NCBI GenBank assembly: GCA_050288105.1
Contig: JBNKDE010000014.1
Span: 10,539 to 74,538, forward strand
Origin: Gammaproteobacteria bacterium
Lineage (GTDB): Bacteria; Pseudomonadota; Gammaproteobacteria; GCA-001735895
Direction: 5' to 3'
DNA: 64,000 nucleotides
Shown: piece after piece, positions 9,887 to 37,295 of the stretch
Layout: every line of letters begins with the position of its first letter
Position numbering within the stretch: position 1 is the stretch's first letter
Notes under the pieces: model-generated
Seen by the model: only the letters and a program-made list of their open reading frames with translations
Told to the model about the DNA's origin: nothing
Databases searched by the model: none
Made by a program: the position numbers and the translations under genes

Positions 9887-10618
9887 TTAATGTCCGTCGA
9901 TATAACTTTGTGCTTCGCTTAGATTAATGGTGCGTTCGTACAACGCTCGCCCAATAATCACGCCTTCAATGCCCGAGCTTTTAACTTCATTCAGACGCTT
10001 GATATCGTCCAGGTCAGTGACCCCTCCAGAGGCAATCACCGGAATTGAAATTGCTTCAGCCAACTGGCGAGTCGCGTCAACGTTTACGCCCTGCATCATG
10101 CCGTCACGACTGATGTCGGTATATACAATACTGGCTACACCCTGGTCCTCAAACCGGATTGCAAGATCCAGCGCTGAGTGGCCGGATGATTCAGCCCAGC
10201 CCTGCACGGCCACCATACCATTCTTGGCGTCTATGCCAACGATCACATGGCCAGGAAACTCTGCACATAACTCGGTGACAAACTCAGGATTTTTAACCGC
10301 CTGGGTGCCAATGATGACGTATTCCACGCCTGCAGCCAGATAGGCTTCAACGGTTTCCACGGTTCGGATCCCCCCTCCAATCTGGATCGGAAGCTCCGGA
10401 AAAGCAGAAGATATACTTTCGATAACATCCGCATTCACCGGCTTACCTTCAAACGCACCATCCAGATCAACCAGATGCAGCCGTTTGGCACCTTGCATAA
10501 CCCACTTTTCCGCCATCGCGACTGGATCATCAGAGAAAACCGTACTGTCTTCCATATTGCCCTGGCGCAAGCGTACGCATTGCCCCTGTTTTAAATCAAT
10601 CGCTGGTATCAAGATCAT
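9887..10618 (-). CDS. hisA: ProFAR isomerase HisA
   Basis: The protein reads [17 protein letters not shown].... I prefer the ATG at 10618, which forms an ATGA overlap with the hisH stop. The track ORF extends to 10633. Confidence 0.95.
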
Positions 10619-32299: not shown

Positions 32300-32905
32300 T
32301 CAACCTGCCGCCAGTAATTTTCGCAAATCGACGGCGATTATCTGTGGATCTTCTTCGTGAGGTTCGTAAAACTGGATTACCCCACGCTGGTCGATGAGAT
32401 AGATAACAGAACTGTGATCAATCACATAGCCCATCGCAGAATCTTTCAGAGGTACTTTCTCATAGATCACATTGTACTGACGCGCTATCTTATCGATATG
32501 TTCGCGGTTATCTCCAGTCAGGCCCACATAACCAGGGTTAAACCCCTTAACAAAGATATCCAGTGCTCTTGGTGTATCCCTTTCAAAATCTACCGAGACA
32601 AATATACCCTGTACCTTTGCTGCCTGTTCAGGAGAGAGTAATTTAATCGCTTCAGTCAGGTTATACAGAGAGGTCGGACAGATATCTGGACATGACATAT
32701 AACCGAAATAAAGCGCGACAACCTTACCCTTGTAGTCACTTAGGGATACGGGGCCATTCACAGACTGCAGTGTAAAATCCCCACCTGCGCCTGGGATAAG
32801 GTCGCTACCCTGTCTGACCAGGTATTGTTGTGCGAGTAAAATACCGCCAAAAAAACAGACGGCAATGACCCAGAAATAAACCGTTTTTGAGTTTTTCGCT
32901 TGCAT
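32300..32905 (-). CDS. SCO1/SenC-family copper chaperone (thioredoxin fold)
   Basis: 201 aa with an N-terminal TM anchor, CPDICP (CxxxC), and a conserved downstream His (IDHS). Confidence 0.88.
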   Translation of the reverse strand: MQAKNSKTVYFWVIAVCFFGGILLAQQYLVRQGSDLIPGAGGDFTLQSVNGPVSLSDYKGKVVALYFGYMSCPDICPTSLYNLTEAIKLLSPEQAAKVQGIFVSVDFERDTPRALDIFVKGFNPGYVGLTGDNREHIDKIARQYNVIYEKVPLKDSAMGYVIDHSSVIYLIDQRGVIQFYEPHEEDPQIIAVDLRKLLAAG

Positions 32906-32915
32906 GATTTTGATG

Positions 32916-33392
32916 CTAGTGTTTTTTGTTTTCGTGACCTTTCATAGCGGGCTTCATCATCACCCTGTGTATGGGCACCGAAATCAGCTGATGACTGCCA
33001 TCAGAAAATCCGAGATCAACATCTACCGATTCACCAACATTCAGATCGCGCAGCAGGCCAATAAACATAATATGCAGACCGCCGGGTTCAAGTACCACGG
33101 TTTGATTCGAAGGCAGGTCAATCTTATCGATCTTGCGCATGCGCATAACGCCACTGTCATTTACATGTGTATGCAGCTCGACTACCTTAGCTGCGTCGCT
33201 ACTCGCGCTAACCAGTTCTGCATGCTCACCCTGATTAGTAATCTGCATAAAAACGGCAGAGTTTCTCTGGTCCTTAATCGCAGAACGCGCGAACGCGTTG
33301 TCTATGACCAGATTATTGGATACTTCTGCCAGGGCTGGAAAACTAAACAGCAATACTGCAAGAAAATACAAACGTTTCATCAAAGCATCCAA
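32916..33392 (-). CDS. Copper chaperone PCu(A)C (DUF461)
   Basis: It has a signal peptide and an H-x10-M-x-M ... H-x-M pattern (LHTHVNDSGVMRMRK...GGLHIMF). The track start is a TTG at 33392. The ATG at 33380 (MKRLYF) is more likely. Confidence 0.85.
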   Translation of the reverse strand: MDALMKRLYFLAVLLFSFPALAEVSNNLVIDNAFARSAIKDQRNSAVFMQITNQGEHAELVSASSDAAKVVELHTHVNDSGVMRMRKIDKIDLPSNQTVVLEPGGLHIMFIGLLRDLNVGESVDVDLGFSDGSHQLISVPIHRVMMKPAMKGHENKKH

Positions 33393-33503
33393 TTGTAAAA
33401 AGGACTGGATATTACCCTAAACAGCCCTGCAGGTGTAGGGACAATTTGTCACAGCAAAGCGCACACAAAACATTCATTCTGTATCGAGCCCAGGCGGGAA
33501 GTC

Positions 33504-36500
33504 TCAGGCTAGCGAAACCCTGACGTTTTTAGGATTCGACTTAAGCTGCTGCAACTGGCTCTCGAGTCGATCCAGCACCTGTTTTGATGTCTCTTCAGGC
33601 TTCACCTCGGTCACTGACGCCACAAGGTCAAAATGCACACGGTGACCCAGATCATTGGACTGAATATCTTGCTGAATCGCGCTTAACATAGCTAGCGCCT
33701 GGTCACCATTCGAGCCTGGCAATACCAGCATGAAACAACTTTCATCCCAACGCGCCAGGATATCGGTGCCTTTTAAATGAGAATGGATAATATGCGAAAT
33801 CGACAGAATGACATCGTCGTATAGCTGATTTTCTAACTGATCCTTAATCGTTTTGATATCTATATCCATTAAAATCAAAGAGAGCGGTTCACATTGATAG
33901 TGACTGCGTTTTAGCTCCTGCTGCATAAATTCACACAAATACGAACGCGTCAGCGCCCCGGTTAATTCGTCACGGGGTTTATCGGTATGCCCTGTTAGAT
34001 CGACGATACGACGACTCATCACTTCAGATAGATTGCGATACAGCCGCATCGAGATCCTTGGATGAAATAAACCCAGCTGGCGGATACCGCTCCATTTCAT
34101 CTCCAGCGCGCGAACCTTTTCCTGCGCAGTTACTCGAGACATACGCTCACGCTGTGATAACTCCGCAACTTCCCCAAACAGATCCCCGGCCTTCAGGTAG
34201 CCCAGGGTGTGAACAGATCCATCGGAATCGCGATGTGTCGCTTTTGCAGAGCCTTCCAGCAATACAAAAAAGGTATCGCCCTGCACACCCTGGTCAACGA
34301 TCACATCCCCTCTTTTGAACTCTCGAATAGCCCCGGAAAGAATCGCGCGCTTAATTTGAAAGCTTTTCAGCCCTTTGAATACAGGGCTATTTTTTAATAC
34401 ATCATCTTTCAGGTTGAGTGAAAGCATATCCCATACTGAAATGAGCCGAATAAAGGACAACAAAACCGGTGTCAGTACAAAGGTTGAGAACATTGCCAGC
34501 ACCATTACCAGAGCGCTCAATGCCCCAAAGTAAATCACTGGCTGAAAACTCGACAGCATCAATGTTGCGAATCCCAGCGCCAGCGCAATAGAGGTCGTGG
34601 TAATCGGGGTTGCTTCATGCAGAATGGTTTTTCTAAGCGCCAGCTCAACATCGTCGGTACCACGGGTAAAGAAATGATAGCGTGTCAGAAAATGTATCGT
34701 GTCATCCACACAGATACCCAGAGCGATTACAGCCACCATGGTAGTACCTGAATCCAGTGGGATCTGGTAATACCCCATCACCCCAAACAGGACCACGACG
34801 GAAAAAACGTTAGGGACCAGCGCGATTATGCCAGCACGAAAATCCAGAAATAGAATAGACACCAGCAGCAATATCACCACCACCATTAAAAACAGTGACT
34901 GAATCTGCCCCCAGGCCAGCGCATCAGCGGCCTTGTTACTCAATACCGAGTCTCCGGTCAGGGTGATCTGCATACGCGACTTTAAATCGTGCCGGATATA
35001 GTCCTCAATTTCCTGGAAAGCCTGCTTCAACTTTTCCGAATTACCCTGGTTATGACGAACCAGAATGCGCGTACTGCTATAATCAGGGTTCACATAAGCG
35101 CTCACCGCACCAAACTGTACGAACTGCATGTACACCTCAATCACTTCATCCTCAAACGGCAGGCGGGGCTCACTAATGCCTTCCATGGCCTTATGCGTGA
35201 GCTTGATAAAATCTGCAAAAGAAAAGCTTTTATCGAACACACCCTGCTGCGCAATAAACTGTTGGATCTTTTCAATATCCTCCAGGTATCTTACTTTTTT
35301 AAAGGTACCCTCGATCGCAGAATCCAGGATGATGGAAAAGGTCTGCATGCCTGATAAATCCTGATGAATCTGATCAGCACGTTGACGCACCTCCGAATCG
35401 TCACTGAAATAGGCCATCGTATCGTTATTGACCTCTAAAAACTGCGCTCCCCAGGCAAAATACCCGGCAATAACCATTAACAGTAATAAGGTGGTTTTCT
35501 TGATGCGCATCACCACAGAAAAAATACCGACGGCGACACTCTGAAACTTGTTCTGCCTAAGTGTTAAATGCGTGTTTTTCCCGCCAAATAAACGCAGATA
35601 GGCAGGAACAAATAGTGTCGTGACCAGGAAGTTAATCCCCAACCCACCGGATACCAGCCAGCCGAACTCCTGCAATAGTTCGAGATCGCTCACCGTAATA
35701 GAGACAAAGCCAGCAGCCGTGGTTAAAAAAGCCAGCATCACTGCCAGATGCTGATTCACCGGAAGGCGCTTAACGGCTTCATCCCGCGACAGTCCTTCGC
35801 GCAGACCGCTGTGGTACTCAGCCATCAGATGTACATCTTCGGTTGAGCCGATAATAATCAGTAAAGCGGGAATAATAGAGGTTAGTACATTAACTGGAAT
35901 TTCCATCCAGGCCATGTAGGACAGGGTCAGGACGATACTGATAATCGCTGAAGAAAGCGGCACGATAGAACAGTTTAGTCTGCCCATACTCAGCCCCAGC
36001 ACGACCAGCAGCATGGCCAGGGCAGCAGGCATAATCGACTTCATATCGATCTGTATCTGTCGCGAAATCTGGTCTCGCACATAGGGGGAGCTCATCTGAA
36101 ATGCGTTATCCAGAACAGCCTTAAGGGGTTCCAGCTCACGCTCAATAGCCCCAGTGATTTCAGCATCCCTGCCCAGACGCTTGGAAGTCTGCTCAATGAA
36201 CAGATTAATCGCCATGGTCTGATGATCCGACGAGAGCAGGTTTTTATCCACCAGGGTATTGGCTGCGGCATCCTCCAGCAGCACTTTTATGTCTTCCACT
36301 TGCTGAGGAATTTCCAGCAGGAACGGCCTGGTTTCAATAAAACCATTCACCTCCTTTACATTCGGCACGTCAAATAACGAACTGGTCGAATGCACAAAAT
36401 CCAGTCGTTTCAGGCGCTTTACTGTTGCTCTGATCGCTTCCAGTTTAGCGGGTTGAAACAGGTCCTTATCCGACAGGATCAGCATAACAACGTTATCTGA

Positions 36501-36686
36501 TCCAAATTGCCTGACTGAATCCTGGTAAAACTTCCAGCTTGGGTCGGATTTTGCCAGCAGGCTTTGTGCCGAGATATCAAATTTAAGGTTCGAGATTTGT
36601 GGCGCAACCGAAGCTGTCAGCACCACCAGCGCCAGCAATACCAGACGCGGGTATAGAAAAGAAAAATTAAGTAACCACCTAACCAT
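33504..36686 (-). CDS. Fusion protein: RND-superfamily/MMPL-type exporter (12 TM, COG1033/HpnN-like), cNMP-binding domain and degenerate GGDEF domain
   Basis: 1060 aa. Residues 1-750 have a 1+5 / 1+5 TM layout with two large periplasmic loops. Residues 762-890 form a CAP-type cNMP-binding domain (FGEVAEL...RMSRVTA). Residues 905-1045 form a GGDEF fold (DELTGALTRS) in which RWDESCF replaces RxGGDEF. Confidence 0.8.
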   Translation of the reverse strand: MVRWLLNFSFLYPRLVLLALVVLTASVAPQISNLKFDISAQSLLAKSDPSWKFYQDSVRQFGSDNVVMLILSDKDLFQPAKLEAIRATVKRLKRLDFVHSTSSLFDVPNVKEVNGFIETRPFLLEIPQQVEDIKVLLEDAAANTLVDKNLLSSDHQTMAINLFIEQTSKRLGRDAEITGAIERELEPLKAVLDNAFQMSSPYVRDQISRQIQIDMKSIMPAALAMLLVVLGLSMGRLNCSIVPLSSAIISIVLTLSYMAWMEIPVNVLTSIIPALLIIIGSTEDVHLMAEYHSGLREGLSRDEAVKRLPVNQHLAVMLAFLTTAAGFVSITVSDLELLQEFGWLVSGGLGINFLVTTLFVPAYLRLFGGKNTHLTLRQNKFQSVAVGIFSVVMRIKKTTLLLLMVIAGYFAWGAQFLEVNNDTMAYFSDDSEVRQRADQIHQDLSGMQTFSIILDSAIEGTFKKVRYLEDIEKIQQFIAQQGVFDKSFSFADFIKLTHKAMEGISEPRLPFEDEVIEVYMQFVQFGAVSAYVNPDYSSTRILVRHNQGNSEKLKQAFQEIEDYIRHDLKSRMQITLTGDSVLSNKAADALAWGQIQSLFLMVVVILLLVSILFLDFRAGIIALVPNVFSVVVLFGVMGYYQIPLDSGTTMVAVIALGICVDDTIHFLTRYHFFTRGTDDVELALRKTILHEATPITTTSIALALGFATLMLSSFQPVIYFGALSALVMVLAMFSTFVLTPVLLSFIRLISVWDMLSLNLKDDVLKNSPVFKGLKSFQIKRAILSGAIREFKRGDVIVDQGVQGDTFFVLLEGSAKATHRDSDGSVHTLGYLKAGDLFGEVAELSQRERMSRVTAQEKVRALEMKWSGIRQLGLFHPRISMRLYRNLSEVMSRRIVDLTGHTDKPRDELTGALTRSYLCEFMQQELKRSHYQCEPLSLILMDIDIKTIKDQLENQLYDDVILSISHIIHSHLKGTDILARWDESCFMLVLPGSNGDQALAMLSAIQQDIQSNDLGHRVHFDLVASVTEVKPEETSKQVLDRLESQLQQLKSNPKNVRVSLA

Positions 36687-36742
36687 GCAATATTTGGTCT
36701 CACGCCTCGCGCAACAGGAAAATAGGCAGAACTGCCCATAAA

Positions 36743-36768
36743 GGTATATTAGATTTTGTTAATATACC
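36743..36768. promoter_or_regulatory. Inverted repeat GGTATATTA-N8-TAATATACC between marR and the exporter fusion gene (candidate operator)
   Basis: 9-bp perfect arms read directly. The repeat lies 57-82 bp upstream of the fusion gene ATG and about 95 bp downstream of the marR stop. Confidence 0.35.
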
Positions 36769-36860
36769 GCTGAAGTTTTAAATAGCAACCTTTTCTTATG
36801 GATAACAGCACCAGTTAACAAACTAGCCGATGAAAAGACCGCGTCAGACGGGGACTGAGG

Positions 36861-37295
36861 TTAAAAATCGATATGCTCTGACAACAATTGCATCACCTCG
36901 CGCCAGCTCTTTTCTGCTTCAGGGCCAACCTGCTGAAAAATCTCGCCAAAGCGTTTGCGCTGTTCGCCAGTTAATTGCGCCTCCAGTTCGGTTCCACTGC
37001 GAGTTAACGACAGGCGCTTTATGCGGCGGTCACTATCATCGGTTTGATACCGAATAAATTCATGATCAAGCAACTGCTTTAATGGTCGATTCAGGTATTG
37101 CTTGCTGACCTGCAGAATCTGCAATAGCTGGGAAATACTGCATTGCGGATTACGCCCGATAAAGTACAGCAGACGGTGATGTATACGACTCATTCCCAGC
37201 TTTGCCAGTCGTTGATCCTGTTTATAGACCATAGCCCTGAAACCAAAAAACATCGCTTCAAGCGCAAGATTTAATTCCTGTTCTCTATTCATCAT
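36861..37295 (-). CDS. MarR-family transcriptional regulator
   Basis: 144 aa with a winged HTH (ISQLLQILQVSKQYLNRPLKQLLDHEFI...D.RIKRLSLT). Confidence 0.88.
   Translation of the reverse strand: MMNREQELNLALEAMFFGFRAMVYKQDQRLAKLGMSRIHHRLLYFIGRNPQCSISQLLQILQVSKQYLNRPLKQLLDHEFIRYQTDDSDRRIKRLSLTRSGTELEAQLTGEQRKRFGEIFQQVGPEAEKSWREVMQLLSEHIDF

Follow-up and report, generated by a model that had tools for sequence, protein, structure and literature searches.

An RND/MMPL-type exporter fused to a cyclic-nucleotide-binding domain and a degenerate GGDEF domain in a gammaproteobacterial genome

The 64,000-nucleotide stretch analyzed here (the window; positions 10,539 to 74,538 of contig JBNKDE010000014.1, Gammaproteobacteria bacterium assembly GCA_050288105.1) encodes, on its minus strand, a protein of 1060 amino acids in which an RND/MMPL-type exporter is followed by a cyclic-nucleotide-binding domain (CNBD) and a degenerate GGDEF domain. 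The fusion gene is real and conserved, and it is a member of a sizeable, widespread, and uncharacterized family rather than a singular oddity. On balance, we favor the reading that the protein is an exporter of a lipid or other hydrophobe gated by a cyclic mononucleotide (cNMP), and that its dead GGDEF domain is an accessory domain, probably blind to cyclic di-GMP (c-di-GMP) in the window protein.

Domain architecture

An original prediction, made from the DNA letters alone, had described a single three-part open reading frame (ORF) of 1060 residues. This description holds: the minus-strand ORF at 33504-36686 has no internal stop, and Pfam finds all three domains above their gathering scores, namely MMPL in two stretches (4.9e-28; 98.5 bits vs. 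a cut-off of 20.5), cNMP_binding at residues 788-871 (1.8e-16; 60.3 bits vs. 27.5), and GGDEF at residues 905-1054 (1.4e-16; 61.1 bits vs. 23.8). Both the cNMP and the GGDEF fold are thus detected by profile search, and the positions predicted for the RWDESCF motif (residues 979-985, nt 33732-33752) and the cNMP domain (residues 762-890, nt 34017-34403) are exact. The main parts of the protein are as follows.

33504..36686, minus strand: whole fusion ORF, 1060 amino acids (RND/MMPL exporter, cNMP-binding domain, and degenerate GGDEF domain)
34437..36686, minus strand: RND transporter core, residues 1-750, with 12 transmembrane (TM) helices and periplasmic domains PD1 (about 34-215) and PD2 (about 418-595), by Pfam, AlphaFold2, Foldseek, and hydropathy
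34362..34454, minus strand: juxtamembrane linker (residues 745-775) joining TM12 to the cNMP domain; its core, L748..V-W752-D753-x-L-S756, is nearly invariant
33993..34403, minus strand: CRP-type CNBD, residues 762-898, including a long C-helix (876-897)
33525..33974, minus strand: degenerate GGDEF domain, residues 905-1054, by Pfam, AlphaFold2 fold, and Foldseek

The cyclic-nucleotide-binding domain and linked cyclases

Searching 5.8 billion clustered proteins gave 174 homologues, of which the 115 of at least 850 amino acids were analyzed; 84 of these have all three domains and 31 consist of exporter and cNMP domain only. A separate AlphaFold2 model of the tail (residues 745-1060; pLDDT 80.4) contains a CRP-like beta-roll, the long C-helix (876-897), and then a GGDEF fold. 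Against the Protein Data Bank (PDB), the cNMP domain matches PKG, PKA-R, and CRP by phmmer (down to 4e-18) and M. tuberculosis CRP, GlxR, and PKG by Foldseek. Its phosphate-binding cassette (PBC), in which the Gly, Glu, and Arg are all present, aligns by HMMER with the signature FGE..PR(S/T)A of PKG and PKA.

34125..34178, minus strand: PBC F837-G-E-V-A-E-L-S-Q-R-E-R848-M-S-R-V-T-A854, aligned to FGE..PR(S/T)A of PKG

Among the 115 homologues, G838 is kept in 114, R848 in 107, and E839 in 96, and 92 have all three residues. The cNMP domain is also the slowest-evolving part of the protein, with the lowest non-synonymous divergence (pN 0.027-0.053). The linker that joins it to TM12 is hardly more variable (pN 0.03-0.06 vs. 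close orthologues): L748 and F770 are present in 115/115 homologues, and W752 and D753 in 111/115 each. With the cassette kept, the domain most constrained, and the linker nearly invariant, the nucleotide sensor looks competent.

The genes around the relatives bear on the ligand. We clustered the flanking ORFs of 87 loci and sampled seven annotated neighborhoods. A gene for a class III nucleotidyl cyclase (PF00211) adjoins the two-domain exporter in seven loci, which corresponds to 7 of 42 two-domain loci vs. 0 of 45 three-domain loci (locus handles begin with L).

L033:615-1865: cyclase, ends 2-6 nt before the exporter start
L038:1700-2995 (Escarpia endosymbiont): cyclase, ends 2-6 nt before the exporter start
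L068:357-1703: cyclase, ends 2-6 nt before the exporter start
L064:728-2953: CHASE2-cyclase, ends 48 nt upstream of the exporter
L083:2001-2963 and L083:707-2020 (Desulfospira joergensenii DSM 10085): LolA-like gene and PAS-cyclase, in the order PAS-cyclase, LolA-like gene, exporter
L036:713-2797, minus strand: dCache-HAMP cyclase, divergent from the exporter
L081:6943-9114: CHASE2-cyclase, after the exporter

The sensor parts of these seven cyclases are of four unrelated kinds (CHASE2, MASE6-like, PAS, and dCache-HAMP), which points to repeated recruitment of a cyclase. We regard the adjacent cyclases as the strongest evidence that the fused domain would read a cyclic mononucleotide, and together with the kept PBC they lend support to the control by cAMP or cGMP that had been proposed for the window protein. 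The base-specifying position of the neighboring cyclases varies (K, R, E, Q, D) and allows no call between adenylate and guanylate cyclases. The second informative neighbor is a gene for a LolA-like periplasmic protein (PF17131/DUF1329), found immediately upstream of the two-domain exporter in Desulfobacterales-type loci (L083, as listed, and L007:5162-5971); its product may be the periplasmic acceptor of the exported hydrophobe. No partner gene recurs in more than 8 of the 87 loci in the flanking-ORF clustering, and only the cyclases and the LolA-like genes, both beside two-domain forms only, are informative.

Several points weigh against a cNMP-gated exporter. Tblastn found no cyclase gene in the 64-kb window, and none lies beside the three-domain homologues (0/45 loci). 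The PBC Arg is followed by Met849 instead of the usual Ser, Thr, or Ala, and therefore the affinity or specificity of the site may be unusual; across the family this residue is T in 35, M in 31, S in 17, I in 10, and L in 9 sequences. CRP/FNR-type domains elsewhere bind ligands that are not nucleotides, such as haem, 2-oxoglutarate, chlorophenols, and others. The homologue counts are not phylogenetically independent, and the Fisher tests that we ran on the co-occurrence of ligand sites (next section) ignore phylogeny and are descriptive only. On the transporter side, the best NCBIfam model, TIGR00921 (HAE3 family of RND transporters), scores 236.7 bits and does not reach its cut-off of 351.9, and no conserved partner that would name the substrate was found among the clustered loci, the LolA-like gene in a few two-domain loci aside.

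Some of these points are shared by the best-surviving alternative, according to which the tail no longer senses nucleotides: the CNBD and the dead GGDEF domain would then be a scaffold for oligomerization, localization, or partner binding, or the CNBD would take a non-nucleotide ligand. Met849, the three-domain loci with no cyclase nearby, and the ligand range of CRP/FNR folds all fit such a tail, as do the degenerate A- and I-sites of the GGDEF domain in the window protein and the loss of the PBC Glu in one clade (Thiodiazotropha-like, 12 sequences). However, retention of G838, E839, and R848 in 92/115 homologues in the most constrained part of the protein, the tight linkage of cyclase genes to close two-domain relatives nested in the same clade, and the fact that every member with a complete sequence keeps at least one of the two candidate ligand sites are at odds with this alternative. 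We consider it unlikely.

The degenerate GGDEF domain

By Foldseek, the GGDEF part matches SiaD, DgcB, DgcR, WspR, and PleD, a set of cyclases that carry a helical stalk. When aligned by HMMER with diguanylate cyclases of known structure, the protein has D981-E-S-C at the position of G-G-E-E and T913-R-S at that of N-R-R.

33732..33752, minus strand: R979-W-D-E-S-C-F985 in place of RxGG(D/E)EF (dead A-site), by HMMER alignments to 6hbz, SiaD, and DgcR
33762..33773, minus strand: K972-G-T-D975 where an I-site would have RxxD; A1003 (nt 33678-33680) corresponds to its third residue, R390 of PleD

The motif GG(D/E)EF is absent from all 84 three-domain homologues, which indicates that its loss is ancient. 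The replacement is itself conserved (R979 in 81/84, F985 in 78/84, W980 in 76/84). The window protein is therefore not a diguanylate cyclase, and the earlier view of its GGDEF domain as catalytically dead agrees with both the DESC in place of GGEE and the family-wide absence of the motif. The same prediction had every signature lost, with no DxD-FK or GH..GD motif. Its RWDESCF, TRS, and KGTD replacements are confirmed, but remnants of the A-site do align: D941-I-D943 with DxD, K945 with the FK Lys, D957 with the GD Asp, and K1049/K1053 with the K...R of KxxGRN. These remnants are poorly conserved among relatives (D941 in 49/84, D943 in 30/84), even within the close clade, so that the GTP binding once suggested for this domain has no support at the A-site.

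Despite its dead A-site, the domain is not decaying. D906, G910, D975, R979, W980, and F985 are nearly invariant across the 84 proteins, and dN/dS (the ratio of non-synonymous to synonymous substitution rates) is 0.088 (about 0.09-0.11) for the GGDEF domain vs. 0.072 for the RND part, as estimated from L001 vs. L009, the only usable orthologue pair, since synonymous sites are saturated in most others. The domain is thus under purifying selection.

At the I-site, the window protein has K972, D975, and A1003 where PleD has R359, D362, and R390; A1003 can be equated with R390 because the register with PleD is free of gaps. Its whole clade shares the K-D-A pattern. Family-wide, R972 is found in 57/84, D975 in 83/84, R1003 in 47/84, and the full R-D-R triad in 45/84 proteins, and the positions equivalent to R359 and R390 tend to be kept or lost together (45/12/2/25 for both, the first only, the second only, and neither). 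With two of the three primary I-site residues lost, binding of c-di-GMP, another part of the original prediction, is unlikely in the window protein; it is plausible in the 45 of 84 relatives that have R-D-R. A cross-table of the two candidate sites in the 84 three-domain proteins gives 34 with both PBC and I-site, 38 with the PBC only (including the window protein), 11 with the I-site only, and 1 with neither. The 11 form the Thiodiazotropha-like clade, in which the PBC Glu is replaced by Val or Ile, and the sole member with neither site is a C-terminally truncated sequence, so that 83/84 keep at least one. This pattern fits two real ligand sites, one of which would be dispensable in a given lineage.

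A second alternative holds that the dead GGDEF domain of the window protein itself senses c-di-GMP, GTP, or another nucleotide, and that the exporter integrates two second messengers. In its favor, D975, R979, and W980 hardly vary, Lys at 972 replaces Arg conservatively, the residues D941/D943, D957, K1049, and K1053 still stand at A-site positions, and relatives have the full R-D-R I-site. One of these relatives, the three-domain protein P0049 (L002), lies between a GGDEF-EAL gene (L002:2523-4745) and an HD-GYP-like gene (DUF3391+HD_5; L002:9916-10923), an anecdotal link of P0049 to c-di-GMP turnover. In the window protein, however, both I-site arginines are replaced, at two positions that co-vary as if lost together; the A-site remnants are unconserved even among its closest relatives; and D-E takes the place of the GG turn that holds the GTP phosphates. 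We judge nucleotide sensing by this GGDEF domain to be distinctly improbable.

The transporter core

Hydropathy and AlphaFold2 agree on 12 TM helices and two large extracytoplasmic loops, between TM1 and TM2 (residues 34-215) and between TM7 and TM8 (418-595), in line with the 12-TM exporter with two large periplasmic loops that had been predicted. An internal two-fold duplication is evident from the two Pfam MMPL stretches and from the match of the second half of the protein to the first half of TIGR00921. The AlphaFold2 model of the exporter, built on 104 homologues, has a mean pLDDT of 83.4 and a pTM of 0.68. Searched against the PDB with Foldseek, the core finds MmpL4 as its best match (E 4e-24; TM-score 0.80 on the target), then MmpL5 and MmpL3 (about 0.8), and, after these MmpL proteins, HpnN (E 2e-21), NPC1, NPC1L1, and Dispatched. 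Its modelled fold thus places the core in the lipid-handling branch of the RND superfamily (MmpL/HpnN/HAE3-like). PDB matches by sequence are distant (phmmer; Patched 1.7e-5, HpnN 1.4e-4), and the curated models other than TIGR00921 also stay below their cut-offs: the HpnN models score 67.4 bits vs. 751.85 (TIGR03480) and 33.3 vs. 1100, and TIGR00833 scores 98.2 vs. 874.7. The protein is within the MMPL/RND fold class and outside every curated subfamily threshold.

Two motifs in the membrane carry the acidic and histidine residues of a putative proton relay.

35829..35849, minus strand: TM4 motif G280-S-T-E-D-V-H286, with the putative proton-relay acidic pair E283/D284
34692..34718, minus strand: TM10 motif G657-I-C-V-D-D-T-I-H665, pseudo-symmetric to that of TM4

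In TM4, G280, T282, D284, and H286 are invariant and E283 is found in 113/115 homologues; in TM10, G657, D661, and H665 are invariant and D662 is found in 100/115. The motifs GSTEDxH and GxxVDDTxH are as expected of a working proton relay, a role that we infer from MmpL3 and HpnN, and because they are invariant or nearly so in the 115 homologues, the exporter looks active. Its substrate is probably a lipid or another hydrophobic molecule of the envelope, as proposed from the fold class and from the LolA-like partner of some relatives.

A third alternative makes the RND part a lipid sensor instead of a pump, comparable to the sterol-sensing domains of Patched and SCAP, that reports the state of the membrane or its lipids through the C-terminal module. 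The Pfam Sterol-sensing and Patched SSD models do match residues 239-364, Patched is the best PDB sequence match for TM8-12, and the tail is laid out like a signaling protein (CNBD, helix, GGDEF), as in XC_0249 (PMC3770947). Yet the output domain is enzymatically dead in 84/84 proteins and would have no obvious signal to emit, the invariant TM4 and TM10 relay motifs are those of an energized transporter, and the LolA-like periplasmic lipid carrier encoded with two-domain relatives fits export. A sensor of this kind is very unlikely.

Integrity of the gene and distribution of the family

The continuity of the ORF was examined in separate sequencing runs. Run X1 gives a 14-kb contig identical to the window, and run X3 gives an 8.6-kb contig of a strain variant with 52 substitutions and 0 gaps over 33400-36900. 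The database protein P0003 is 99 % identical, with 6 residues differing from the fusion protein, and dozens of orthologues from other assemblies have 1058-1062 amino acids, many of them exactly 1060; orthologues of equal length reach down to about 60 % identity. The window derives from a metagenome-assembled genome and contig ends cut a few database relatives short (P0066, P0104), but an assembly chimera or decaying pseudogene is effectively refuted by the gap-free contigs (with no indel in the variant), the 6-residue difference from P0003, the full-length homologues (more than 80, out of many assemblies), and the strong purifying selection on all three parts.

With one genome scanned per GTDB species, 390 encoded relatives came to light, and the best 80 of these come almost all from uncultured marine Gammaproteobacteria. 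Homologues occur mainly in marine sulfur-oxidizing Gammaproteobacteria; hosts include Candidatus Thiodiazotropha, Sedimenticola, Thiolapillus, Chromatiales, Thiotrichales, and an Escarpia tubeworm endosymbiont, and the two-domain forms extend to Desulfobacterales and Syntrophaceae. The architecture is common, in hundreds of species, and uncharacterized; of the possibility that it might prove both common and already characterized, only the first half came true. In a FastTree phylogeny of the pump and cNMP region, the two-domain forms are basal, from which we take the cNMP fusion to be the older and more constant feature; the three-domain proteins fall in one large clade, and about nine gains or losses of the last (GGDEF) domain are seen.

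A profile of the tail searched against 1.84 billion representatives revealed a distant second branch with the order RND, CNBD, dead GGDEF (P0175, 1068 amino acids; P0254, 1077 amino acids; P0186; P0225), whose pump is 22-25 % identical and which has SRIDxxTF at the GGDEF position and an intact RxxD (RRTD). The same search found soluble cNMP-GGDEF proteins with an intact GGEEF (P0228, P0159). "RND-only" relatives were rejected as a separate architecture: the sequences of P0066 and P0104 stop a few residues into the CNBD, that of P0104 within 90 nt of its contig end, and P0112 is on a 2.4-kb contig; all three are truncations. Short "stand-alone" matches to the tail were mostly N-terminally truncated fragments of fused proteins as well. 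The genuine exception is P0126 (L088:1025-1885, 286 amino acids; the same in L089), a stand-alone cNMP and dead-GGDEF protein that is 48 % identical to the window tail. It occupies the locus at which relatives encode the complete fusion. SAICAR synthase, purE, and purK follow downstream, and a 297-residue ORF with no Pfam match and no similarity to the pump precedes it. The L088 and L089 contigs stop about 1 kb upstream in two samples, which could reflect a repeat or a rearrangement.

Several genomes carry two paralogues: L065 and L066 (Gammaproteobacteria bacterium Milos-ODIII6), L010/L029, L012/L019, L011/L052, and L031/L037. In Milos-ODIII6, for example, L065 is a three-domain and L066 a two-domain copy, and the paralogues suggest a division of labor between differently regulated exporters.

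Neighborhood and promoter

In the window, the local order is marR, the fusion gene, PCuAC, and SCO1, with a divergent class IV aminotransferase gene upstream.

36861..37295, minus strand: MarR-family regulator gene, same strand as the fusion gene and 174 bp upstream of it (Pfam MarR_2, 9.2e-15)
32916-33392, minus strand: PCu(A)C copper chaperone gene, directly downstream of the fusion gene
32300-32905, minus strand: SCO1/SenC gene, downstream after PCu(A)C
36743..36788, minus strand: promoter-like site and palindrome in the gap between marR and the exporter, with a sigma-70-like -35 (TTGCTA), 16 nt, and -10 (TATATT) at 36788-36761
36743-36768, minus strand: perfect palindrome GGTATATTAAC-N-TAATATACC, overlapping the promoter -10

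The MarR gene noted earlier is indeed upstream on the same strand, and marR is also found upstream in the orthologous loci L001, L008, L010, L013, L014, and L017, but the linkage is limited to the close clade and is not family-wide. Pairing of PCu(A)C with SCO1/SenC is ordinary and syntenic in close relatives only. The marR, aminotransferase, and PCuAC-SCO1 synteny as a whole is clade-specific; at 64 %, 54 %, 40 %, and 38 % identity, the neighbors differ.

The core of the palindrome, ATATTAA-N6-TAATAT, occurs once in the 64-kb window vs. 0.01 expected copies. In 12 loci of the clade with at least 60 % identity (L001:5915-5934, L005:5913-5932, and the equivalent positions in L008-L016 and L018), it lies about 66-88 bp upstream of the orthologous gene, although in part of them a WYL regulator or other genes take the place of marR. 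Since the palindrome is kept upstream with or without marR, the exporter appears to have a conserved promoter and operator of its own. One candidate for binding the palindrome is MarR, but there are others.

Proposed mechanism

For the cNMP-gated exporter that we favor, the following scheme can be drawn. A proton-driven, lipid-transporting pump of the RND branch would be transcribed from the gene's own promoter with its conserved palindromic operator, and its activity would be set post-translationally by the fused cytoplasmic module. The CNBD, which starts a few residues after TM12, would bind cAMP or cGMP; the change upon binding would pass through the juxtamembrane L748..VWDxLS segment and the C-helix to the TM bundle with its relay residues E283/D284 and D661/D662, and movement of the C-helix and linker would alter how the pump cycles between conformations. 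In the window protein, the dead GGDEF domain is most likely an accessory structural domain that would pair, lock, or stabilize the sensor, as the unit of stalk and GGDEF domain does in real cyclases, and in the relatives with a full I-site, about half, c-di-GMP could act as an added second input. The architecture and fold, the conserved relay motifs, PBC, and linker, the dead A-site, the I-site lost in the window protein, the purifying selection, and the cyclase genes beside relatives are observed; which ligand binds, whether it activates or inhibits, what is exported, and how the protein oligomerizes are inferred.

Much more tentatively, the family as a whole might be a two-input lipid exporter, with cNMP acting through the CNBD and c-di-GMP through the I-site of the dead GGDEF domain to gate directly an RND pump by which free-living and symbiotic sulfur-oxidizing Gammaproteobacteria remodel their outer envelope, and with some lineages, such as that of the window, specialized for a single input. 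We would give this wider proposal a minor chance; if it is true, a nucleotide would for the first time be seen to control an RND-superfamily transporter directly.

A pump joined to a cyclic-nucleotide sensor, with a cyclase co-transcribed in some lineages, makes a concrete and testable case of post-translational nucleotide gating in the RND superfamily. In the fusion family, a second messenger may switch an RND pump directly, which would be a first and would extend the short list of bacterial cAMP/cGMP targets by a new kind of effector. Its natural series (two-domain; three-domain with I-site; three-domain without I-site) offers a way to study the role of a dead GGDEF domain. Chemosynthetic symbionts (Thiodiazotropha, tubeworm endosymbionts), in which envelope remodeling would be relevant to symbiosis, are among the hosts, and the cultured Desulfospira joergensenii DSM 10085 carries the cyclase, the LolA-like gene, and the exporter in one operon, which makes experiments feasible.

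Comparison with known systems

The RND superfamily covers drug-efflux pumps, the mycobacterial MmpL proteins, HpnN, and the eukaryotic Patched and NPC1. To our knowledge, its transporters are regulated transcriptionally or through small accessory proteins, and direct control by a second messenger is undescribed. The original prediction had likewise stated that RND pumps are normally not gated by nucleotides, and this accords with a 2023 review of transporter modulation, which lists small proteins only as regulators of RND transporters and mentions CNBD fusions for MFS only (PMC10710835). In full-text literature searches, we found no description of an RND-superfamily member with a CNBD or of an RND-cNMP-GGDEF fusion, so that the fusion is still without a characterized example, as predicted.

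Among exporters, the characterized HAE3 members are HpnN and AmeD only (PMC6394551). HpnN of Burkholderia multivorans and Rhodopseudomonas palustris resembles the fusion protein in its 12 TM helices, its two periplasmic domains, and the lack of a membrane-fusion or outer-membrane partner gene; in contrast, the sequence similarity is marginal (phmmer 1.4e-4; 67 bits vs. 752 for TIGR03480), HpnN is without cytoplasmic sensor domains, and no hopanoid genes lie near the fusion gene. MmpL3, MmpL4, and MmpL5, exporters of lipids and siderophores, are the best structural matches and share the Pfam MMPL domain, for which the fusion protein passes the cut-off, and the acidic residues in TM4 and TM10 that form the relay of MmpL proteins. 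However, identity to them is only 12-14 %, their C-terminal cytoplasmic domains are unrelated to the CNBD and GGDEF domain, MmpL4 and MmpL5 need MmpS partners, and the fusion protein comes from a Gram-negative host.

For the tail, the nearest counterpart is XC_0249 of Xanthomonas campestris, a diguanylate cyclase with a cNMP-binding and a GGDEF domain that is activated by cGMP (PMC3770947). It has the same order of CNBD and GGDEF domain, and it adjoins the class III cyclase XC_0250, as the two-domain exporter relatives adjoin cyclases. XC_0249 is soluble and active, whereas the fusion protein carries a dead GGDEF domain (RWDESCF) on an RND pump with no adjacent cyclase in the window. The degenerate-GGDEF receptors for c-di-GMP of the PelD/PopA type likewise combine a selectively retained GGDEF fold with a dead A-site, and the RxxD and second Arg of their I-site are found in 45/84 relatives; the window protein, with K-G-T-D and Ala, lacks these defining binding residues. 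Finally, the channels MloK1, SthK, HCN, and CNG and the CNBD-fused MFS carriers (PMC10710835) have, like the fusion protein, a C-terminal CNBD joined by a conserved linker to the last TM helix. Direct allosteric control of membrane proteins by a CNBD is known for channels and noted for MFS carriers; unlike the fusion protein, all of these are channels or MFS carriers and not members of the RND superfamily.

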